Source: an uncultured delta proteobacterium
GTDB taxonomy: Bacteria > Desulfobacterota > Binatia > UBA9968
Direction of reading: 5' to 3'
Assembly: GCA_963771465.1 (NCBI GenBank)
Contig: CAVYTU010000017.1
Span: 960,001-1,024,000, forward strand
DNA length: 64,000 nucleotides
Of the stretch, positions 31,619-43,421 are shown one piece after another. Below the pieces are notes generated by a model. That model saw nothing but the letters and a program-made list of their open reading frames with translations. It ran no database searches and was not told the origin of the DNA. Each line of letters begins with the position of its first letter. Positions within the stretch are counted from its first letter, which is position 1. The position numbers and the translations under genes are program-made.

Positions 31619-32919
31619 AGCTCGCTGTGGTTGGCACGGGTTATGTGGGTTTGGTTGCCGGGACTTGTTTTGCCGAGAGCGGCAACGATGTCGTCTGCGT
31701 CGATATCGATGCGAGCAAGATCGCCATGCTCAAAGAAGGTAAGGTGCCGATCTATGAGCCGGGGTTGGAAGAGATGGTTCGCCGCAATGCTGCCGAGGAG
31801 CGACTGTTTTTCTCCACGGATTTGGCGGCGGCGGTAAAACATGCGGCCATCATATTTATCGCCGTCGGTACGCCGCAAGGGCCAACGGGACACGCCAATC
31901 TGGAATACGTTCGCGCCACGGCAAAGGGTATCGCCAAGGCGATGGATGGCTTTAAGATCATCGTCACCAAGAGCACGGTGCCGGTGGGCACGGCGGATCA
32001 AATCAAACAATGGATCGCCGCAGAAACAGCACAAGGCTTCGCCGTCGTGTCCAATCCTGAGTTCATGAAAGAAGGCGCGGCGGTGGAAGATTTCATGAAG
32101 CCCGACCGCATCGTTTTGGGTAGCGACAACGCCGATGCCATCGAAGCGGTCAAAGAGTTGTACGAACCGTTTATGCGCACGGGTAATCCCATCTTGGCGA
32201 TGGACAGCCGGAGCGCCGAGATGAGCAAGTACGCCGCCAACGCCATGCTTGCCACCAAGATCTCCTTTATCAATGAGGTGGCCCGGCTATGCGAAGATCT
32301 CAACGCCGACATCGGCGAAGTGCGTCGGGCGATCAGCTTGGATCGGCGCATCGGTCCGCACTTTATTTTTCCCGGCGCCGGTTACGGCGGCTCATGTTTT
32401 CCCAAAGACATCCGTGCGATGATCAGTATGGGCGGCGACGATCCCGACATGTTGTTACTCAAAGCGGTTGAGGCGGTAAACGAACGACAAAAAGGCTTGC
32501 TAGTCGAAAAAATCAAGCGCCGCTTCGGCGCCAAGCTGTCCGGACACACCTTCGCCATTTGGGGCTTGGCGTTCAAGCCGCGCACCGACGACATGCGCGA
32601 TGCGCCGTCGATCACCGTCATCGAAGCGCTGCTCGCGGCCGGCGCCAAGGTGCAGGCCTTCGACCCGGAGGCCACGGACGAAGCGCGCAAAATATTTGGC
32701 GCGCGAATTGACTACGCTCAAAGAAGCTACGACGCGCTTAGCGGCGCATCCGCTTTATTGATTCTCACCGAATGGAACGAGTTTCGCCGGCCTGATTTTT
32801 CGCGGGTCAAATCCCTGCTCAAACAGCCGGTGATCATCGACGGCCGAAACATTTACGATGCCGAGGATTTGCGCAAACTTGGATTTACCTACGAATCGAT
32901 AGGAAGGAACCATGGCTAG
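31615..32919 (+). CDS. ugd: UDP-glucose 6-dehydrogenase
   Basis: [32 protein letters not shown]. Confidence 0.96.
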
Positions 32920-33851
32920 ATATTTAGTGACTGGCGGCGCGGGTTTTATCGGATCTCATCTGTGCGAGAGTTTCCTCAGCCAGGGGCATGAGGTGCTGTG
33001 CATGGATAATTATTCCACCGGGGCGAAGGATAATATCGCGCCGTTTCTAAAAAACCCGCGCTTTCGCTTCATCGATCATAACGTCAGCCGTTACATCGAA
33101 GTGCCCGAGCCGCTGGATTTCATTCTCCATTTCGCGTCGCCGGCGAGCCCTGTGGATTATTTAGAGCTGCCGATCCCCACGCTCAAAGTCGGCGCGTTGG
33201 GGACTCATAACACGTTGGGCCTCGCCAAGGCCAAGGACGCCGTGTTCTTGTTGGCATCGACTTCCGAGGTTTATGGCGATCCGCTGGTTCGGCCTCAGCC
33301 CGAAGATTACTGGGGCAACGTCAATCCCATCGGTCCGCGCGGTGTTTACGATGAAGCGAAGCGATTCGCCGAGGCGATGACGATGGCCTATCATCGCTAC
33401 CATGGTTTGAAAACTCGGATCGTCCGCATCTTCAATACCTATGGGCCGAGAATGCGGCTGCGCGATGGCCGCGTGGTGCCTAACTTTATCATGCAGGCGC
33501 TCAAAGGGGAGCCGCTGACGGTTTATGGCGAGGGACAGCAGACTAGAAGTTTTCAATATGTCGACGATCTCGTGGCTGGGCTCAATAAGTTGCTGCATGC
33601 GAATTATCACCTGCCGGTAAATATCGGCAATCCTGACGAGATGACCGTGTTGGAGTTCGCCAAAAAAATCATCGAACTGACCGGATTCGAAAAGCTCAAT
33701 TGTCTTTAAGCCGCTGCCGGAGGACGATCCCCAAGTTCGCCAACCCGATATTTCCAAGGCGCGAGCGATTCTCGGTTTTGAGCCGAAGGTAAAGCTTGAA
33801 GCGGGTCTAATCAAAACCATCGAATATTTCCGTTCAAAGTTAACGGGGTAA
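32912..33851 (+). CDS. UDP-glucuronate decarboxylase (UXS-like), +1 frameshift near 33686 (probable error)
   Basis: [30 protein letters not shown]; C-terminus [14 protein letters not shown] continues in the next frame to TAA at 33851. Confidence 0.92.
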
Positions 33852-33853
33852 AA

Positions 33854-34780
33854 ATGAAAGTAGTCGTCACCGGAGGCGCCGGCTTTATCGCTTCGCATAT
33901 TGTCGACGCTTATTTGGCGCGCGGTCACGAGGTGCATGTCTTCGACGACTTCTCCACCGGTCAAAAAAACAATCTCAACGGCAGCGCGACGGTCCATAGG
34001 ATCGATATCGCCGATGGCAAAGTCGTCAAGCTGATCGAAGCATTGAAGCCGGATGCGCTGAGCCATCATGCGGCGCAGATGGATGTGCGCCATTCGGTGG
34101 CGGACCCGACTTTTGACGCGCGCGTCAATATACTTGGTTTTATTAATTTACTCGAAGGCTGCAAAAGCGCCGGCGTGAAAAGAGTGACCTTCGCTTCCTC
34201 CGGCGGCGCGGTGTACGGCGAACAGGAAGTATTTCCGGCCCCTGAAAGCCATCTTACCCAACCGGCGAGCCCCTACGGCGTGAGCAAGCGCGCCGGCGAG
34301 CTTTATCTGTCCTATTATCATCAAGCTTATGGACTTCCCTATATCGCCTTGCGTTACGCCAATGTTTACGGGCCGCGCCAGTCGGCCCACGGCGAAGCCG
34401 GCGTGGTGGCGATATTTTTATCGGTATTGCTTTCTGGCAAGACGCCGCTCATCAACGGCGACGGCAAGCAAACGCGCGACTACGTCTACGTTGACGATGT
34501 GGTGGCGGCGAACGTCGCCGCGCTGGAGTCGCCCTTTGTCGGCCCGATCAATATCGGCACCGGCGTCGAAACCGATGTGACAACGATCTTCGAGCATCTG
34601 CGCAAGGCGGTGGGTAGCGAAGTCAAAGCACAGCACGGGCCAGCTAAAGCCGGCGAGCAGCGGCGCAGCTGTTTGGACACGCGGCGCGCCGGTGACATAC
34701 TGGGCTGGCGGCCCCGGGTCGCACTGGTGGACGGCCTCAAGCGTACGGCGGACTTCTACCGCGCCAACCTGAACCGATGA
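33854..34780 (+). CDS. UDP-glucose 4-epimerase-like NAD-dependent epimerase
   Basis: [33 protein letters not shown]. Confidence 0.92.
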
Positions 34781-36570
34781 CTCTCGAGCATATCCGAAAT
34801 TTTTCCATCATCGCCCACATCGATCATGGCAAGTCGACATTGGCGGACCGGCTCCTGGAATTCACCGGCGCGGTGAGCGCGCGGGAAAAGACCGACCAGA
34901 TTCTCGACAGCATGGATCTCGAACGAGAGCGTGGAATTACCATCAAGGCGAGTCCGGTGTGTCTGCGCTACAAGGCCAAGGACGGCAAAGTATATAAGCT
35001 CAACTTGATCGACACGCCGGGCCACGTCGATTTCACCTACGAAGTTTCGCGCAGCTTAGCGGCGTGTGAAGGCGCTTTGTTAGTCGTCGACGCCGCCCAG
35101 GGCGTTGAAGCGCAGACCGTCGCCAACGTCCATATGGCGTTGGATCACAATTTAGAAATTCTCCCGGTCATCAACAAGATCGATTTGCCGAGCGCGGAGC
35201 CCGAACGGGTGAGAATGGAGATTGAAGACGTCATCGGCATCGATGCCTCCTACGCGATTCCCGCGAGTGCTAAAGAAGGCGTCGGCACGGAAGAAATTCT
35301 CGAAGGCATCATCCACCATTTTCCACCGCCCAAGGGCGACCCCGCCGGGCCGCTGCGCGCACTGATCATCGACAGTTGGTTCGATCCCTATCACGGCGCG
35401 GTGGTCATGCTCAGACTATTCGACGGCACGATGCAAAAGGGCACCAAGATTCGCATGATGTCGAGCGGGTTGGTGTTCGAAGTTCTGCGTCTGGGTGTCA
35501 ACTCTCCCGTGCCGGTGGAGGTTTCTGAGCTTCGGGCCGGCGAAGTCGGCTTTGTCATGGCCGGCATCAAGGAAGTCGGCGAGACCCAAATCGGCGACAC
35601 GATGACCACCGACGATCGGCCGGCGAGCGAGCCGCTGCCAGGTTTCAAGCCGATGAAGCCGATGGTCTTTAGCGGACTTTATCCAACCGATTCCGGCCAG
35701 TACCAGGCGCTGCGCGAAGCGTTGGAAAAACTCCGCCTCAACGATTCGTCGTTTACTTTCGACCCCGAGACATCGCAGGCACTCGGCTTTGGGTTCCGCT
35801 GCGGCTTTTTGGGTCTGCTGCACCTGGATATCATCCGCGAGCGGCTGGAGCGGGAGTTTTCGCTCAGCCTAATCACGACCGCGGCGACGGTTATTTATCG
35901 CGTCATAACGGTTACCGGTGAGACGTTGACGATCGATAATCCGGTGAAGCTCCCCAACGAAGGCGAGATCGAGCGCATCGAAGAGCCGGTGATCCAAGCG
36001 ACTTTGCACCTGCCGCAAGAATATCTCGGCTCGGTTTTGACACTTTGCCAGGAAAAAAGAGGCACGCAGAAAGAAATCAAATATCTCGGTCCGAAGCGCG
36101 CCCAGCTGATCTATGAATTGCCGCTCAACGAGATCGTCGCCGATTTTTATGATAAGCTTAAATCCGTCAGCCGCGGCTACGCTTCGATGGATTACGAGGC
36201 GATTGGCTACCGCGAGGCGGATCTGGTCAAGCTGGACGTGCGTATCAACGGCGAGATAGTCGATGCCATGTCGATGATCGTGCACCGAGAAAACGCTTAT
36301 TACCGCGGCCGCGAGTTGGTGCACACCATGCGCGGGTTGATCCCGCGGCAGATGTTCGAAGTGGTGATCCAAGCCGCCATCGGCAGCCGGATTATCTCGC
36401 GCGAGACGGTCAAAGCGTTACGCAAAGACGTGATCGCCAAATGTTACGGCGGTGATATCACCCGCAAGCGCAAACTGTTGGAACGTCAAAAAGAGGGTAA
36501 GAAACGCATGAAGCAAGTCGGCAAAGTGGAAATACCCCAGGAAGCGTTCCTAGCGGCGCTTAAAATTTAG
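34777..36570 (+). CDS. lepA: Elongation factor 4 (LepA)
   Basis: [36 protein letters not shown]. Confidence 0.98.
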
Positions 36571-36584
36571 ACGAGGGGTTGCCA

Positions 36585-37253
36585 ATGGCGTTGGAAAAGG
36601 CGAATAAAGTGAAAGAGACAAACGTAATGGAAAGTTCGGCAACGATGAAGGCAAAATCGACTTTCCGCGAATACGCGGAAGCGATCATCATGGCGCTGGT
36701 TTTGGCGCTGTTTATCCGGACTTTCATAGTTCAAGCGTTCAAAATTCCTTCCGGTTCGATGATCCCGACTTTGGCCATCGGCGATCACATCCTGGTCAAT
36801 AAGCTATCCTACGGTGTGCGCATACCGTTTCTCGAACGCTATCTGCTCGATTACGCAGAACCCGCGCGCGGTGACGTGGTCGTGTTTATCTTTCCGGAGG
36901 ATCGATCCAAGGACTTCATCAAGCGCGTGATCGGGGTTGCCGGCGATACCGTCGAAGTTCGCGCCAAAAAAGTTTATATCAACGGCAAGCCCATCGATGA
37001 TCCCCACGCTTATTTCGCCGGCTACGATCCCCAAGCCGGCGGCGCCGGTAGCGGCGATGAATATGGGCCAAAGGTCGTGCCGGAGAATCATGTTTTTGTC
37101 ATGGGCGATAATCGTGACCGCAGTTACGATAGCCGCTTTTGGGGTTACGTGAGTCTCAACGACGTGCGCGGCAAGGCCTTCCTAATTTATTGGTCTTGGG
37201 ACGGCAATGATCGTTGGGTGCGTTGGGAGCGGCTCGGCAGCCTCATACGGTAA
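36585..37253 (+). CDS. lepB: Signal peptidase I
   Basis: IPSGSM catalytic Ser, FIKRV Lys, GDNRDRSYDSR. Confidence 0.96.
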   Translation: MALEKANKVKETNVMESSATMKAKSTFREYAEAIIMALVLALFIRTFIVQAFKIPSGSMIPTLAIGDHILVNKLSYGVRIPFLERYLLDYAEPARGDVVVFIFPEDRSKDFIKRVIGVAGDTVEVRAKKVYINGKPIDDPHAYFAGYDPQAGGAGSGDEYGPKVVPENHVFVMGDNRDRSYDSRFWGYVSLNDVRGKAFLIYWSWDGNDRWVRWERLGSLIR

Positions 37254-37360
37254 CTAGAAATCAGTTAGAGATTTTAGCTAGAGACGGTCGGCACGTTGGA
37301 GAGCTGGCAGGCACGGGAATATGCCTCTCTTCACAGCGTCAATTTTGAATAGAGGTGGCA

Positions 37361-37648
37361 ATGACCAAGAAAATGAAAATAATCCTGACCACGCTGTCGA
37401 GTCTGCTGCTGTTGCTCGTCGTCGTCAACATTTTCATCGGCCTTGGCAATCAGTCGATCCAAGCCGAGGTGGGCGAGCGCCAGCAGGTGATCGCCCAGAC
37501 GATGCAATTGGAAACGCTCCACCGCCAACTGATCAACGTATTAGCCAATCTCGCGCTCAAGACTAACGATGAACCGCTAAAAAAAGTGTTGTTATCCGCT
37601 GGAATCGATCTCGGCGGCGGGCCGGAAGGCGCACCGGGAAAGAAATGA
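37361..37648 (+). CDS. Unknown single-TM coiled-coil protein, family A copy 1
   Basis: GAGGTG RBS, N-terminal TM, GNQS..ERQQ..ANLA..D..LK..L...GI shared with 38154. Confidence 0.82.
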   Translation: MTKKMKIILTTLSSLLLLLVVVNIFIGLGNQSIQAEVGERQQVIAQTMQLETLHRQLINVLANLALKTNDEPLKKVLLSAGIDLGGGPEGAPGKK

Positions 37649-37654
37649 GGGCTC

Positions 37655-38068
37655 ATGGCTGAGGAAAATTTCGACACCAGGGATGATGGCGATGAAGCGT
37701 CGGCGCTTCATTCGGATCAACGGCCGATTTCGCACTTGCCATTCATCATTACGTTAGTCGCGTTGCTGCTGTATTTTGCGTTTCAGACCCTGTCGCTACT
37801 TACCGAACGGGCGAACCTTGGCTCGGTCAAGAGCAATCAAGACGGCGCGCTCCAGGAGGCGCAGAAAGTCCAGTCACAGTTTCGTTTGCTGGTTAGCAAA
37901 ACCGGCGAGCTCGCCGATCAGGGCCATGCCGGCGCCAAGATGATCATGGAAGGCTTGCAGCGCCAGGGCATCGGTTTCGCTCCGGAAACGAAGATGCCGG
38001 AAACCAAGACGCCGGCCAAAAGCGAACCTTCCGCCCCTGCAAAAAACGAATCTAAAGCGGCGAAGTAG
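37655..38068 (+). CDS. Unknown single-TM coiled-coil protein, family B copy 1
   Basis: Acidic N-tail, TM, FQT..ER..NQ..QEA.KV..LA..G..GA..LQ..G shared with 38451. Confidence 0.82.
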   Translation: MAEENFDTRDDGDEASALHSDQRPISHLPFIITLVALLLYFAFQTLSLLTERANLGSVKSNQDGALQEAQKVQSQFRLLVSKTGELADQGHAGAKMIMEGLQRQGIGFAPETKMPETKTPAKSEPSAPAKNESKAAK

Positions 38069-38153
38069 TCCGAGGTTGTTTGGCGGTCGCAAATTTACCT
38101 AGCGAAATTATCCGGTAGCAACAACCTATTCAGTCGGCACGGTAGGTTAACTC

Positions 38154-38444
38154 ATGATCGGTCAACGGGGACTCAATCTGTTCAGTTTTCTGACGCTGAT
38201 ATTAGTATTCGTCAACATGTTTTTGCTGGTTGGCAATCAATCCTTACAGCGCAGTGTCACGGAGCGCCAGCAGTTCATTATGCAAAGTATCCAGGCGCAA
38301 ACGGGAGCGCGCGAGATCATCGCCGCGGTCGCCAATCTTGCGGTGCGGACCGACGACGAACAGCTAAAAGAGTTGCTGGCCAAACACGGCATCACGGTGT
38401 CGGTAAAATCCGCGCCGGCTGCCGCCGCGGTGAAGAGCAAATAA
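38154..38444 (+). CDS. Unknown single-TM coiled-coil protein, family A copy 2
   Basis: Aligns with 37361-37648. Confidence 0.82.
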   Translation: MIGQRGLNLFSFLTLILVFVNMFLLVGNQSLQRSVTERQQFIMQSIQAQTGAREIIAAVANLAVRTDDEQLKELLAKHGITVSVKSAPAAAAVKSK

Positions 38445-38450
38445 GTCAGA

Positions 38451-38801
38451 ATGAGCGCGGATAACGTCGAAGATCGCGAACAAGCCGCAAGCGAAACTCA
38501 GCCGGTGCCGAGCGCGAACCTCGCGTTAACACTGGTCGTGTTGTCCTGGTGCGCCTGGACGGTATTCCAAACCGTACAGTTCGTGCGCGAGCGTAATCAT
38601 CTGACTCAGCTCAGAGCCAACCAAGAAACGCCCATTCAAGAAGCAACCAAAGTTAGAGCGCAGATCGAGGCCATCACCGCCGACACCGTCAAGCTCGCCG
38701 CAGCGGGCAACGTCGGCGCCCAACGCATCGTCCTCGAATTGCAAAAGCGCGGCTTCAAGCTCCCCGCCAATGCGAAGCCCGCGGCGCCGACAAAAAAATA
38801 G
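38451..38801 (+). CDS. Unknown single-TM coiled-coil protein, family B copy 2
   Basis: Aligns with 37655-38068. Confidence 0.82.
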   Translation: MSADNVEDREQAASETQPVPSANLALTLVVLSWCAWTVFQTVQFVRERNHLTQLRANQETPIQEATKVRAQIEAITADTVKLAAAGNVGAQRIVLELQKRGFKLPANAKPAAPTKK

Positions 38802-38888
38802 TGAAGCATAGCAATTCGCGTGACGGTATGCGGTGGACGTGAGTTAGCCATTCGTGAATTAACCCAATCAATTGTCATATTCATAGAC

Positions 38889-38918
38889 GTCGGGTTACGC
38901 TACGTCGACCCGAGCTAC
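38889..38918 (-). repeat. GTAG-type REP-like palindrome
   Basis: Minus strand GTAG-CTCGGGTCGACGTAGCGTAACCCGAC: GTAG tetranucleotide then a TCGGGT/ACCCGA stem. Confidence 0.55.
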
Positions 38919-38949
38919 TGAAGTGTACACGGCTCGAGAATCCTTCTTA

Positions 38950-38978
38950 TTGACCCTCGCTGAAATTCCCTCTAGCTT
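38950..38978 (+). promoter_or_regulatory. Putative sigma70 promoter of lhr
   Basis: TTGACC-N17-TAGCTT. Confidence 0.45.
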
Positions 38979-38993
38979 GAACTTGTCTATGCA

Positions 38994-41900
38994 TTGGGGA
39001 GATCAAGCTTGAACGATTTATTTCATCCCTTAGTTGAACGCTGGTTTTCTGAGCGCTTTCAGGAACCGACGCCGGCGCAAGCGCATGGCTGGGAATCGAT
39101 CGCTGCCGGAAAGTCTACTTTGATCGCGGCGCCGACTGGCTCTGGTAAGACATTAGCCGCATTTCTTTGGTCCATTGACCGCTTGATCAAACGCGCCCTC
39201 GACGGCGCGCTCGATGAGCGCACCAGCGTTGTCTACGTTTCGCCGCTAAAAGCGCTCGGCAACGATATCGCCAAAAACCTGCAAACGCCGCTGGCGGAAA
39301 TCTATCAGCTTGCCGGCCGCGAAGGTATTTTACTGCCGACGATCCGGGTGGCGGTGCGGTCGGGTGACACGCCGGCAGCGGAGCGCCAGACGATGGTGCG
39401 CCGGCCGCCGCATATTCTCATCACCACGCCCGAGTCGCTCTACATTCTTCTCACGTCCGTGCGTAGCCGCGAGTTTCTTCGTACCGCGGAGACACTGATT
39501 GTCGACGAGATCCATGCCACCGCTCAGGATAAGCGCGGCGCGCATTTGTCGTTGTCATTGGAAAGGCTCGATGCTTTAACAGGTAAGCGACTGCAACGCA
39601 TCGGTTTGAGCGCAACCCAGAAACCGATCGACGAGGTCGCGCGCCTGTTAGTCGGAAGTCGCTACGTTGCGGCAGATCGCACGCCGGACTGTGCGATCGT
39701 CGACGTCGGTCATCAGCGCGAAATGAAACTTCGCATCGAGGTGCCCGACGACGAACTCGGACCGATCATACGCCAGGATATCTGGGCCGCGGTGTACGAT
39801 AAACTTGTCGCTGAGATCAAAGCGCATCGGACGACGCTGATTTTCGTCAACACGCGCCGGTTGGTCGAACGGGTGTCGCACCAGCTAACCGAGCGGCTCG
39901 GCGAGGACAAGGTTGGCGCCCATCATGGCAGCCTATCGCGCAAGTCGCGGCTCGCGGTGGAAGAGAAACTCAAGTCCGGCGCGTACCCGGTCGTCGTCGC
40001 GACCGCTTCCCTAGAACTGGGCATCGATATCGGTCACGTCGACGTGGTTTGCCACATCGGTTCGCCGCGCAATTTGGCCGTGCTGCTCCAGCGGGTCGGC
40101 CGCTCCGGCCACTGGCACGGCGCCATTCCCAAAGGGATACTTTTCCCCTTGACGCGCGATGATCTGCTCCAGTCAGTCGCCGCGATTCGTGCTGTGCGCC
40201 AGGGTGAATTGGACAAGCTCATCGTGGTCAAACAGCCGCGCGATATTCTCGCTCAACAAATGGTGGCGACGGTGGCGAGCTGGGATTCAGGCGCAAACAT
40301 TCCGGTGCGGCAAGGCCACGGGCGAAGCCGATTCGCAATCGCAGAATTGACCGCAAAGAGCGCCAAGAAGAGCGAAGATGAGGGAATTAGTGAAGAGGCT
40401 TTGTGGCAGCTCATGCGCGGCGCGTATCCGTACGAGAATCTCTCGCGCGAAGAATTTGACCAGATTCTTGAGATGCTTTGTGAAGGCGTCGAGACGCGGC
40501 GCAGCCGGCGCAGCGCTTTCATTCACCGCGATCGCATCAACGGCATGCTCCGGCCGCGGCGCGGCGCGCGCTTGACGGCGATTACCAACGGCGGCGCGAT
40601 TCCCGACACGGCGGATTATCAGGTGATCGAATTTCCGAGCGAGACCTTCGTCGGCACGGTGCATGAAGACTTCGCCATCGAGAGCCTGGCGGGGGATATT
40701 TTTCTGCTCGGCAACCGTTCCTGGCGCATTCGCCGTGTCGCTTCGGGCAAGGTATGGGTGGAAGACGCCAAGGGACTGCCGCCGACCATTCCATTCTGGA
40801 TGGGAGAGGCGCCGGCGCGAACCTTTGAACTTTCCAAGGCGGTGGGAGAGTTGCGAGTCGCCGTGGCCGAAAAGCTCACAGACAGATGCGCCGCGGCTCA
40901 GTGGCTCATCGACCAAGTGGCGATGGCGCCGGCGGCAGCCGAGCAGATCGTTGGCTATGTCGCCGATACGATCGCCGTGCTTGGCACAGTGCCGTCGCAA
41001 GGGAAACTCATCGCCGAGCGTTTCTTCGACGAAGCCGGCGGTCAGCAATTGATTCTCCATTCGCCGTGGGGCGGGCGGATCAATCGAGCTTGGGGTTTAG
41101 CGCTGCGCAAGCGTTTCTGCGTCAGCTTCGACCGGGAGTTGCAAGCGGCGGCGACCGACGATGGCATTTGTATTTCTCTGGTCGAGCAACATTCGTTTCC
41201 GCTAAACGACGTCTTCGCCATGCTCAAGCCGGCCATGGTCGAAGACCATCTGACTCAAGCGGCGCTTGATTCGCCGATGTTTACTAACCGCTGGCGCTGG
41301 AATGCGACCCGCGCTCTGGCGCTGATGCGCTTCAGCGGCGGCAAGAAAGTACCCGTCGCACTTCAGCGCATGCGCGCCGAGGATTTGCTCGCCGCGGTAT
41401 TTCCCGAGCAGGTGATGTGTCAGGACAATCGCACTGGGCCGGTGGAGCTGCCTGATCATCCGCTGGTCAAAGAAACCATCGGCGATTGCTTGCACGAAGC
41501 GATGGATATCGATGGCCTCACCGACATTCTTACCCGCATCGAGAACGGCGAGATCGAAACTCTCGCCATCGATACGCCGTCGCCGTCGCCCATGGCCCAT
41601 GAAATTCTCAATGCCAATCCCTACGCCTTTCTCGATGACGCGCCGTTGGAAGAACGGCGCGCCCGCGCCGTGTCGCTCAGGCGGGTCGATCCTTGGCTCG
41701 GACGGGAGTTCGGTCAACTCGATGTCGCGGCGATCGCGGCGGTCTGCAAACAAGCGTGGCCGGAAGTGCGCAACGCCGATGAGCTGCATGATTTTCTCCT
41801 GGGTGTCTGTTTGCTGCCGGTCGCGCTGCGTCCGGATTGGCGTCCACTGGCCGAGCAATTAATCGACAATCGCCGCGCCACTATCGCTAGTTGGCAAGCC

Positions 41901-43421
41901 GCGAATGGCGCGGCAGGCGCCTACGTCGCCGCTGAACGAAGCGATCTGGTGCGTGTGGCCGTGTCAAATATTGCTTTAACGCCGCCGGTGGAACTGCCTC
42001 TAGGATTTGCCGAACCCATCGCTGACGCAGAGGACGCGGTTAAAAAAATCGTCCAAGGATGGCTTGAAGTGAGCGGTCCGATCACGGCGAACGCTCTCGC
42101 TTTGCGCCTGGGCCTGCCGATCAACAAGGTCAGCGCCGCATTGATCGCGCTCGAAAGCGCCGGAGTCGTCATGCGCGGCCAGTTTAGCAATCGCAGTGCG
42201 AACGCGGACGGAGAAGAATGGTGCGACCGGGTGTTACTCGCGCGCATTCATCGAATGACGTTAGGGCGCATGCGCAAGGAGATCGAACCCGTCACGGCCG
42301 CTGACTTCATGAATTTTCTCATGCACTGGCAACATGTGACGCCGGAGCGGCAGCTGCGCGGCCGCGATGGCATCTTGACGGTCATCGAGCAGTTACAGGG
42401 CTTGGAGCAGCCGGCGCCGGCTTGGGAGCAGCATATCTTGCCGGCGCGCATCGCGCACTACGATCCCGCTGATCTGGAGCATCTCTGCCTCGCCGGCATG
42501 GTGGCATGGGGAAGGTTGCGCACTGAGAACGACACGTCGATGCCGTTGGCACAACTGGGCGGCGTTGCGAAGAAACGTCGCCGCTTGCTGGCGCCGGCGC
42601 GTAACGCGCCCATCGCTTTCCTATTGCGCGAAGAGATCGCTTGGTTCCTGGAATCCACTTCCGTCCGATTCACGGAAATTGCCACGTTGTCGGCGATGGC
42701 GTTGGAAGTGGCGAGCTATCTCGACCGCTCCGGTGCGTCGTTTCTTACCGATATCGCGCGCGGCACCGGACTTTTGAAAGTCAAAGTCGAAGAAGCGCTC
42801 TGGCAATTGGTCGCCCATGGCTTGGCGACGGGGGATGGGATTGCGGGATTGCGAGTGCTGCTAACGCCGCAACACAAGCGTGTCGAACGGCGGCGCGGAT
42901 TGCGGGTGATCTCCGGCGGACGCAGCGCCGAGCGGGCGATGCCGATCGGACGTTGGTCCCTATGGCGCCAGCAAAAAGTCGCCGAGGAGATTAGCGCGGA
43001 GGCGATCGTGGAACGGCGTGGGCGCCAACTGCTCGATCGCTACGGGATCGTCTTCCGCGAGCTGTTGGCGCGCGAATCGAACATGCCGACCTGGCGCAGT
43101 CTGCTGGCTGTCTATCGGCGCCTTGAAGCGCGCGGTGAGATTCGCGGCGGCCGTTTCGTCAACGGTTTTGTCGGTGAACAGTTTGCGCTGCCAACAGCGG
43201 TTGAAACCTTGCGCGCCTTGTGCCGGACGGAAACCAATCCGTCGCCGATTATTCTGTCGGCGGCCGATCCGCTCAATCTTGTGGGAATTATCAGTCCCGG
43301 CGCCCGCTTATCGCACTATTCAAATCAAGCCATCGCTTATCGCGGCGGTGTCCCATTGGAGGTCGGACTGGTGGGTGAGCTGATCAGCCGGCTCCAACTG
43401 CAATCGACTCAAGAAGGCTAA
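38994..43421 (+). CDS. lhr: Lhr-family ATP-dependent helicase (long form with C-terminal winged-helix/glycosylase-like region)
   Basis: APTGSGKT, SPLKAL, TTPESL, DEIH, SATQ, HHGSL, QRVGRSGH, RGGRFV..GEQFALP; exact start uncertain. Confidence 0.95.
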   Translation: MGRSSLNDLFHPLVERWFSERFQEPTPAQAHGWESIAAGKSTLIAAPTGSGKTLAAFLWSIDRLIKRALDGALDERTSVVYVSPLKALGNDIAKNLQTPLAEIYQLAGREGILLPTIRVAVRSGDTPAAERQTMVRRPPHILITTPESLYILLTSVRSREFLRTAETLIVDEIHATAQDKRGAHLSLSLERLDALTGKRLQRIGLSATQKPIDEVARLLVGSRYVAADRTPDCAIVDVGHQREMKLRIEVPDDELGPIIRQDIWAAVYDKLVAEIKAHRTTLIFVNTRRLVERVSHQLTERLGEDKVGAHHGSLSRKSRLAVEEKLKSGAYPVVVATASLELGIDIGHVDVVCHIGSPRNLAVLLQRVGRSGHWHGAIPKGILFPLTRDDLLQSVAAIRAVRQGELDKLIVVKQPRDILAQQMVATVASWDSGANIPVRQGHGRSRFAIAELTAKSAKKSEDEGISEEALWQLMRGAYPYENLSREEFDQILEMLCEGVETRRSRRSAFIHRDRINGMLRPRRGARLTAITNGGAIPDTADYQVIEFPSETFVGTVHEDFAIESLAGDIFLLGNRSWRIRRVASGKVWVEDAKGLPPTIPFWMGEAPARTFELSKAVGELRVAVAEKLTDRCAAAQWLIDQVAMAPAAAEQIVGYVADTIAVLGTVPSQGKLIAERFFDEAGGQQLILHSPWGGRINRAWGLALRKRFCVSFDRELQAAATDDGICISLVEQHSFPLNDVFAMLKPAMVEDHLTQAALDSPMFTNRWRWNATRALALMRFSGGKKVPVALQRMRAEDLLAAVFPEQVMCQDNRTGPVELPDHPLVKETIGDCLHEAMDIDGLTDILTRIENGEIETLAIDTPSPSPMAHEILNANPYAFLDDAPLEERRARAVSLRRVDPWLGREFGQLDVAAIAAVCKQAWPEVRNADELHDFLLGVCLLPVALRPDWRPLAEQLIDNRRATIASWQAANGAAGAYVAAERSDLVRVAVSNIALTPPVELPLGFAEPIADAEDAVKKIVQGWLEVSGPITANALALRLGLPINKVSAALIALESAGVVMRGQFSNRSANADGEEWCDRVLLARIHRMTLGRMRKEIEPVTAADFMNFLMHWQHVTPERQLRGRDGILTVIEQLQGLEQPAPAWEQHILPARIAHYDPADLEHLCLAGMVAWGRLRTENDTSMPLAQLGGVAKKRRRLLAPARNAPIAFLLREEIAWFLESTSVRFTEIATLSAMALEVASYLDRSGASFLTDIARGTGLLKVKVEEALWQLVAHGLATGDGIAGLRVLLTPQHKRVERRRGLRVISGGRSAERAMPIGRWSLWRQQKVAEEISAEAIVERRGRQLLDRYGIVFRELLARESNMPTWRSLLAVYRRLEARGEIRGGRFVNGFVGEQFALPTAVETLRALCRTETNPSPIILSAADPLNLVGIISPGARLSHYSNQAIAYRGGVPLEVGLVGELISRLQLQSTQEG

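Follow-up and report, generated by a model that had tools for sequence, protein, structure and literature searches.

FtsB and FtsL (DivIC family) are two small bitopic proteins in which a helix continues from the transmembrane (TM) segment, and they are thought to be hetero-oligomeric through the TM and the coiled coil. PilN and PilO, like GspL and GspM, are bitopic proteins encoded by adjacent paralogous genes, and their periplasmic coiled coils heterodimerise. Braun's lipoprotein Lpp is a small, almost purely helical envelope protein with a conserved C-terminal Lys, and proteins of the TonB/TolA type combine an N-terminal TM anchor with a long periplasmic spacer, helical or rich in Pro, and stretches of low-complexity Pro/Lys/Glu sequence. 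Here we describe a locus that invites comparison with all of these, in a 64,000-nucleotide stretch of DNA (the window) from an uncultured delta proteobacterium of the Binatia (assembly GCA_963771465.1, contig CAVYTU010000017.1, positions 960,001 to 1,024,000). Four short open reading frames (ORFs) between lepB and lhr, which we call A, B, A' and B', make up two copies of one two-gene module. The module is obligately paired and belongs to a wide, unnamed family, and its products may well form a hetero-oligomeric stalk that is anchored in the membrane with its C termini in the periplasm.

The analogy to FtsB/FtsL, drawn in a preliminary description of this DNA, is one of architecture and does not extend to family membership, genomic context or distribution. 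The FtsB/FtsL models (DivIC, PF04977; FtsL, PF04999) matched none of A, B, A' and B' at an expectation value (E) of 1 or lower, nor any of 74 wide B members at E ≤ 0.01. Unlike FtsB and FtsL, A and B are not encoded beside division genes, are patchily distributed rather than universal, and have an additional short helix together with a Pro/Ala tail terminating in Lys or Arg; conversely, a coupled gene pair is not the usual arrangement for FtsB and FtsL. With PilN/PilO and GspL/GspM, A and B share the adjacency of paralogous genes for bitopic proteins, but the A/B models consist of two helices only and lack a ferredoxin-like periplasmic core domain. No pilus or secretin genes were seen near A/B, either in the window or among the neighbours in other lineages. 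PilN and PilO gave no match to A/B, and GspL_C matched one of the 74 B members below threshold (E 0.0034).

Like Lpp, A and B are small and helical and carry a C-terminal Lys; unlike Lpp, they have an uncleaved TM anchor, no L-x-x-C lipobox and a flexible Pro/Ala tail before the Lys. The N-terminal TM anchor, the helical and Pro-rich spacer and the low-complexity Pro/Lys/Glu sequence recall TonB/TolA, from which A and B differ in being far shorter, always a paralogous pair, without a globular C-terminal domain and without ExbBD or TolQR genes nearby. They are also unlike phage spanins, having housekeeping neighbours and no o-spanin lipobox. Searches of plasmid and phage collections with tblastn found no match, the phage search being one wide-B representative against 50,697 records. 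As for accessory proteins of the PEP-CTERM/exosortase system, A/B adjoin a PEP-CTERM gene in a little over half of the other-lineage loci counted below and in none of the 28 loci of close relatives, and no accessory family in NCBIfam matches them.

A and B are inherited as an obligate pair

The preliminary description placed two cognate pairs of small ORFs after lepA and lepB, with an exact 6-nucleotide (nt) spacer between the two genes of each pair, and this reading holds (Table 1). A and A' align with 40/88 identities (E 3e-23), B and B' with 40/126 (E 1e-19), and the spacers can be read directly in the sequence (TGA-GGGCTC-ATG from A to B; TAA-GTCAGA-ATG from A' to B'). The motifs that were quoted for the four proteins are all present, except that six residues, not five, separate GNQS from ERQQ. 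The genome to which the window belongs (G000; 6.9 Mb, 99.36% complete) has two copies each of the A and B types and no more. GAGGTG stands 5 nt ahead of the ATG of gene A, and the stop codon of gene A is embedded in a GTGAGG-type string, similar to a Shine-Dalgarno sequence, a few bases before the ATG of gene B; translation is probably coupled from A to B. Scanning positions 36400-39200 for promoters and terminators gave nothing above shuffle expectation, including in the spacer between the two pairs.

Table 1. Coordinates of the module, its flanking genes and the giant upstream genes of six other-lineage loci (L123 to L128, from metagenome-assembled genomes (MAGs) of Rubrivivax, Ideonella, Steroidobacteraceae and Accumulibacter). 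aa, amino acids.
Feature	Position	Strand	Remarks
lepA	34777-36570		Upstream of lepB
lepB (signal peptidase I)	36579-37253	+	Pfam Peptidase_S26, E 2.9e-54; upstream boundary of the insertion site, outside the module
Gene A	37361-37648	+	95 aa; alternative GTG start at 37355
A-to-B junction	37646-37657	+	Stop TGA, 6-nt spacer, ATG
Gene B	37655-38068	+	137 aa
Inter-pair spacer	38069-38153	+	85 nt
Gene A'	38154-38444	+	96 aa; A paralogue, 45% identity
Gene B'	38451-38801	+	116 aa; B paralogue, 32% identity; 6 nt after A'
Lhr-type large helicase	38994-43421	+	Pfam DEAD, Helicase_C, DEAD_assoc, WH_Lhr; downstream boundary of the insertion site, outside the module
Giant upstream gene, L123	1036-9711		
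Giant upstream gene, L124	10691-16606	-	
Giant upstream gene, L125	1647-9542		
Giant upstream gene, L126	10495-17883	-	
Giant upstream gene, L127	3368-9364		
Giant upstream gene, L128	3924-9479		

Small ORFs without a family annotation could be chance open frames in intergenic DNA, and we considered this possibility for all four. Gene A has 235 homologues and gene B 292 at E ≤ 0.001; the source records listed for them are mostly nameless, the others reading 'hypothetical protein' or bearing stray automatic names, and the NCBI records among the homologues listed come from Candidatus Binatia MAGs. The median pairwise ratio of non-synonymous to synonymous substitution rates (dN/dS) is 0.15 among A orthologues (178 pairs) and 0.20 among B orthologues (136 pairs), and ranges from 0.09 to 0.18 within A' orthologues and from 0.21 to 0.40 within B' orthologues. 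Hundreds of homologues with conserved residues, dN/dS values of this order, the synteny of all 28 relatives' loci and the confident helices predicted by AlphaFold2 (see below) together rule out chance open frames and leave that explanation a negligible probability. A, B, A' and B' are real genes under purifying selection.

Four metatranscriptome libraries, from four studies, yielded contigs that between them cover parts of each of the four genes. A 923-nt contig runs from lepB through A into the start of B, another (38036-38206) spans the end of B into A', and a third (38290-38459) bridges A' into B'; DNA carry-over into such libraries is possible and a contig is not proof of a single transcript, and the gap at 38534-38630 carries no information.

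Several copies in related genomes are irregular. The B' orthologue of G225 matches in two reading frames (L008, 2661-2735 and 2735-2941), which is either a frameshift or an assembly error, and the frame of the adjoining A' is still open. Gene B of G221 (L020) encodes a 150-residue product with an unrelated Arg/Pro-rich end, and the B genes of G220 (L012) and G203 (L015) have short 3' ends without the terminal Lys. These three odd ends resemble frameshifts in the low-complexity tail, or assembly errors.

Gene A was found in 26 of the 30 genomes of the window's genus and in 2 of 6 from other genera of its family; it was found in none of 24 genomes from two other families of the same order and in none of 200 sampled other genomes of the phylum. 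With the wide B profile, only G000 matched in the phylum sample, plus one weak row at E 1.7e-4. One genus member without a match (G204) also lacks lepB, which points to an assembly gap. In the relatives' loci A is followed directly by B in 28/28 cases and a LepB homologue lies upstream in 28/28, with the N terminus of Lhr within the available flank in 16 of them. The spacer between A and B is 6 nt in 21 of 29 relatives' pairs and 7 nt in five, with single cases of 4, 9 and -4 nt. These counts include the unpublished genome G205, without which they become 27/27 loci, 25/29 genus members and 20/28 six-nucleotide spacers; G235, also flagged as unpublished, is uninformative. In the sister genera represented by G232 and G234, which lack A and B, lhr begins about 100-200 nt after lepB, so the module is either an insertion into the lepB-lhr junction or has been deleted from it.

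To sample other lineages, species-representative genomes were scanned with a peptide pattern and tblastn, using a 20-sequence B alignment, which gave 73 loci. Burkholderiales MAGs (Rubrivivax, Rhizobacter, Rhodoferax, Accumulibacter, Ideonella) account for almost all of them, and a few carry the labels Steroidobacteraceae, Gammaproteobacteria, Gemmatimonadaceae, Anaerolineaceae or Chitinophaga. A hidden Markov model (HMM) made from Binatia A only recognised an A-family ORF immediately upstream of B in these lineages, at E 1e-13 to 1e-30. Each of the 68 A ORFs is followed at once by a B ORF, and an A accompanies B in 67 of 72 loci; among the six loci where no A was called, three have B right at the end of the available sequence. 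At least 22 proteobacterial A-B pairs overlap by 4 nt. Junctions of 6 nt or with an overlap are typical of translational coupling, which would supply the two proteins in a fixed proportion. A and B are thus always adjacent across phyla, which answers a check proposed in the preliminary description: the A-B pairing is obligate and the A-B pair is the core unit. The family is sparse, being present in 3 of 150 other Burkholderiales genomes and in none of 100 other Gemmatimonadota genomes; because of the latter result, labels outside Burkholderiales may be binning errors. The module is therefore wider than the window suggests, yet patchily distributed.

A and B share one architecture

The claim that A and B have one architecture is supported by AlphaFold2 models, profile alignment and the ability of a wide B model to find A. 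In A, an N-terminal TM segment with Asn23 leads into a Gln-rich long helix, a short helix, a G-I-D motif and a short Pro/Gly tail that ends in KK. B begins with an acidic N-tail, followed by a TM segment with a near-invariant F43-Q44, an amphipathic long helix, a G-H-A-G turn, a short helix, G-I-G-F and a Pro/Glu/Lys tail that ends in K. The elements common to both are the TM helix, a helix of about 40 residues continuous with it, a turn with a short second helix, G-[IV]-x-[IVF] and an unconserved Pro/Ala-rich tail ending in Lys or Arg. AlphaFold2 places helices at residues 2-68 and 71-79 of A and at residues 28-88 and 92-103 of B, with a predicted local distance difference test score (pLDDT) above 90 over most of each long helix.

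BLASTP found no similarity between A and B. Alignment of the two families with hhalign was colinear over 72 columns (P 0.0026, probability 11.6%), and the wide B-family HMM matched A-family ORFs, at best with E 1.3e-8, in a search of a small set of ORFs. The conserved columns, which are N23 (TM), N30, Q34, R40, Q42, Q46, L61-A62, D70, L77 and G81 in A, and Q44 (TM), R52, Q62, L86-A87, G90, A94, L101 and G105 in B, correspond in order. Within the membrane, Asn occupies position 23 of A in 68 of 91 sequences (82 have N, S, D or T there), and position 44 of B is Gln in 90 of 96; these polar residues lie about 14-16 residues past the start of the TM in both proteins. A and B are probably distant paralogues.

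The last residue stands out. Among Binatia-like hits, 115 of 120 A and 113 of 120 B sequences end in Lys, and in other lineages 53 of 68 A and 59 of 74 B sequences end in Lys or Arg; a further 11 of the 68 A sequences end in Pro, those listed as K-P. For comparison, the last residue is Lys in 12.6% and Arg in 12.9% of 4403 long ORFs in G000. The terminal-residue counts come from related sequences and so are not independent. A tail that is otherwise free to vary but keeps its last residue is nevertheless a real feature that calls for explanation.

That A might be a cleaved secreted peptide was considered and rejected: its hydrophobic stretch is about 20 residues long, the residues before G-N-Q-S are not consistently small across the family, and the modelled helix is continuous. 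A B-family subgroup from metagenomes (P0316, P0335, P0339, P0385) has a conserved, Gln/Arg/Pro-rich N-terminal extension of about 100-120 residues ahead of the TM, beginning MQE. No longer fused forms of B were present among 8000 candidates, which is weak evidence.

The pair matches no named family

The preliminary description recognised no named family in these proteins, and none emerged from family, structure or fold searches. Neither Pfam nor NCBIfam gave a match above threshold to A, B, A' or B'; the best sub-threshold match was that of B' to DUF5681, at 18 bits against a cut-off of 27.5. In a test for SAP/HeH motifs, the sole match was that of A' to the HeH-type motif Ish1 (13.5 bits, cut-off 26.6, E 0.093). 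When 74 diverse B members were compared with Pfam, no family matched more than two, and NCBIfam had no match to A or B among the window proteins or those of L054, L059 and L080. Searches of PDB sequences with two profiles gave nothing below E 0.048. Foldseek against the PDB found no match for B and two for A, both at E 9.9; a wide fold search (VIA) returned a flat list of generic long helices with a top Z of 5.5, and the ESM Atlas gave unnamed clusters only. An HMM of Binatia B, searched against 1.84 billion cluster representatives, found 815 proteins at E ≤ 0.001, of which 509 were at E ≤ 1e-10. This is a wide, unnamed family.

A probable duplication of the module as a unit

Both gene trees fit the suggestion that A-B was duplicated as a unit within Binatia. 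The A tree separates Binatia A and A' (23 sequences) from 68 others with support of 95 in the Shimodaira-Hasegawa-like approximate likelihood ratio test (SH-aLRT), and the B tree separates Binatia B and B' (22 sequences) from 70 others with support of 94. The second pair is present in four of 29 genomes (G000, G207, G224, G225); some loci end soon after B, so its absence is not established for all of the 29. In a tree of lepB, A and B together, these four genomes fall inside one sub-clade of nine (support 88) along with single-pair genomes. In the gene trees, the second copies fall outside the whole set of first copies, other genera included (support 86-94), and B'-type proteins from metagenomes are only 47-48% identical. 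The trees would be explained either by an old duplication with repeated loss, or by a younger one with fast divergence or transfer between Binatia. Multiplication of the module is also seen elsewhere: two Burkholderiales loci (L098, L107) carry tandem double pairs, and G261 and G265 have two separate modules each.

Giant surface-protein genes often precede the pair in other lineages

We then compared the neighbours of the pair in 62 other-lineage loci with an A gene and at least 700 nt of upstream sequence. In 36 of them, a same-strand ORF with a PEP-CTERM-like end finishes no more than 400 nt upstream. A single family, its members closing with PEP, then a hydrophobic stretch, then a cluster of Arg, accounts for 29 of 33 long upstream ORFs, and all nine upstream proteins tested contain repeated NCBIfam choice-of-anchor D (choice_anch_D) domains. 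In the six loci that were extended to 20 kb (L123 to L128; Table 1), the upstream gene encodes 1851-2891 amino acids with three to nine choice-of-anchor D stretches, the PEP-CTERM-like tail having been observed where shorter stretches of these genes were viewed. The association with surface proteins is frequent and not obligatory. A narrow search of the literature on choice-of-anchor D PEP-CTERM proteins turned up nothing relevant.

Downstream genes vary. Among 40 tested, eight encode ATPases of about 790 residues that resemble AAA_16, AAA_22 or NACHT proteins, three encode TPR proteins, six are purL and the rest are unrelated housekeeping genes. The ORFs of about 790 residues after the pair, whose products resemble AAA_16, AAA_22, NACHT or NB-ARC NTPases, are found in L080 (2867-5272), L096 (2862-5240), L101, L110, L111, L118, L119 and L120; this NTPase may be a fourth cassette member in one subgroup.

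Housekeeping genes surround the two pairs in the window: icd, mdh, sucCD, rlmN, genes for sugar-nucleotide enzymes, lepA, lepB, lhr, mutL and miaA. No PEP-CTERM gene lies beside the pair in the window or in any of the 28 relatives' loci, and the genome as a whole has a single choice-of-anchor D match (C11:49054-49317). Further upstream in the window are two adjoining genes for NAD-dependent epimerases/dehydratases (32912-33709 and 33854-34780); the product of the first has just 265 residues and its gene is followed by a 145-nt gap, so its 3' end may be truncated.

A proposed membrane-anchored stalk and its alternatives

The reading that we prefer, with confidence no better than middling, is that A and B are an envelope pair made together that forms a hetero-oligomeric, membrane-anchored stalk with periplasmic C termini. 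The two proteins would be made together from the translationally coupled A-then-B gene pair and would associate as parallel neighbours, with contacts along the TM and juxtamembrane helices. Because the polar TM residues sit 14-16 residues into both helices, the TM segments could pack in parallel through an Asn(A)-Gln(B) contact, and the product would be a hetero-oligomeric stalk with A and B in fixed proportion. The proposal of such a heteromer draws on probable translational coupling, co-inheritance and the conserved polar TM residues. The C termini are most likely in the periplasm, since B has long N-tails without a signal peptide (up to 125 residues, many of them Lys and Arg; at least 60 residues in 10 of 113 representatives), one B variant has two extra TM helices and then an Arg-rich loop ahead of the B TM, and the tail is rich in Pro and Ala. 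The stalk may have an envelope role in scaffolding or handling large surface proteins, which is suggested by the usual position of the gene pair in Proteobacteria, behind a giant PEP-CTERM choice-of-anchor D gene.

Several observations weigh against this reading. The upstream PEP-CTERM-like ORF is missing in 26 of the 62 other-lineage loci and in the window, where the Binatia pair stands alone between lepB and lhr among housekeeping neighbours. Exosortase models (PF09721, TIGR04178) have no match in G000, for all its completeness. The other-lineage scan used one peptide pattern, [DE]EL[RK]KRG[VI]T, so that one subfamily is over-represented. The charge around the TM is ambiguous, with a mean of 1.48 Lys plus Arg in the 15 residues on the N side and 1.99 on the C side in A, and 1.71 and 1.65, respectively, in B. 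The hhalign probability for homology of A and B is low. Finally, of the heptad pattern that had been ascribed to both long helices, that of B is supported by a hydrophobic period of 3.6, which 67 of 2000 shuffles reach, but in the long helix of A heptad periodicity is not significant (reached by 482 of 2000 shuffles).

It is possible that A and B do not bind each other at all, and that they are merely co-expressed paralogues which form separate homo-oligomers or act alone, with overlapping or redundant roles. Their probable paralogy and common architecture would agree with this, as would the readiness with which modules multiply, in tandem in the window, L098 and L107 and as two modules in G261 and G265. 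Yet the gene order, A then B, persists across phyla together with junctions of 6 nt or with an overlap, each of the 68 A genes is accompanied by a B, and no A-only or B-only locus was seen away from contig edges, although redundant paralogues would be expected to be lost singly; also set against independent action is G225, where B' is apparently frameshifted while A' is open. We consider independent action unlikely. The orientation in the membrane could likewise be the reverse of the one that we prefer, with the C-terminal helices in the cytoplasm and the L-x-K-R-G-I helix-turn-helix and Lys/Arg tail in contact with nucleic acid or the translocon. This would suit the position beside lepA/lepB and lhr, and the sequences offer it some room: the C flank of the A TM is the richer in Lys plus Arg in 57 of 91 sequences, with no preference for N-in, the strongly acidic N-tail of Binatia B is of a kind that can be translocated, and A' has its weak match to Ish1. 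That match is far under its cut-off, however, the tails are rich in Pro and Ala and basic at the end only, the long Lys/Arg-rich B N-tails lack a signal peptide, and the neighbourhood in other lineages is extracytoplasmic, consisting of PEP-CTERM surface proteins. We consider a cytoplasmic C terminus improbable.

The frequent giant neighbour raises the further possibility that the pair is a dedicated accessory of giant PEP-CTERM proteins, with the A/B stalk as their anchor or acceptor and the terminal Lys amine as a possible nucleophile, in which case the Binatia copies would be orphaned or reused. A choice-of-anchor D gene lies directly upstream in the 36 loci noted above and is a giant in all six that were extended, and the association holds in loci labelled Burkholderiales, Steroidobacteraceae, Gemmatimonadaceae and Anaerolineaceae, although MAG labels outside Burkholderiales may be binning errors. 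The C-terminal Lys or Arg is conserved on a flexible tail, and the patchy spread, with few Burkholderiales genomes positive, is that of an accessory. But the giant neighbour is missing from 26 of the 62 loci and from all 29 pair-bearing Binatia genomes, and G000 keeps both pairs under purifying selection without an exosortase. We consider a dedicated accessory role unlikely. Still more speculative, and in our judgement very improbable, is the more specific idea that A/B form an inner-membrane stalk which presents the terminal Lys or Arg for attachment, as an inner-membrane counterpart of Braun's lipoprotein, or as an acceptor or anchor for giant PEP-CTERM proteins transferred by exosortase. 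The exosortase-acceptor role cannot apply in G000, because that genome has no detectable exosortase. Covalent attachment of the terminal Lys to peptidoglycan through a YkuD L,D-transpeptidase, an attractive idea by analogy with Lpp, was rejected as the main explanation: PF03734 has no match in G000, in a search whose control was positive in 7 of 14 known genomes.

Implications

A and B are a previously unmodelled pair of protein families, with some 800 clusters at 50% identity from the B profile alone, and the four genes of the window represent one conserved module present twice rather than four unrelated hypothetical genes. The link of the module to lepB is positional within one family and not general. 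A variable tail with a conserved Lys or Arg at its end is a simple feature that can be tested, and the frequent position of the pair behind giant PEP-CTERM genes gives it a concrete candidate partner in a poorly understood pathway, the handling of exosortase substrates in the envelope and their attachment there.

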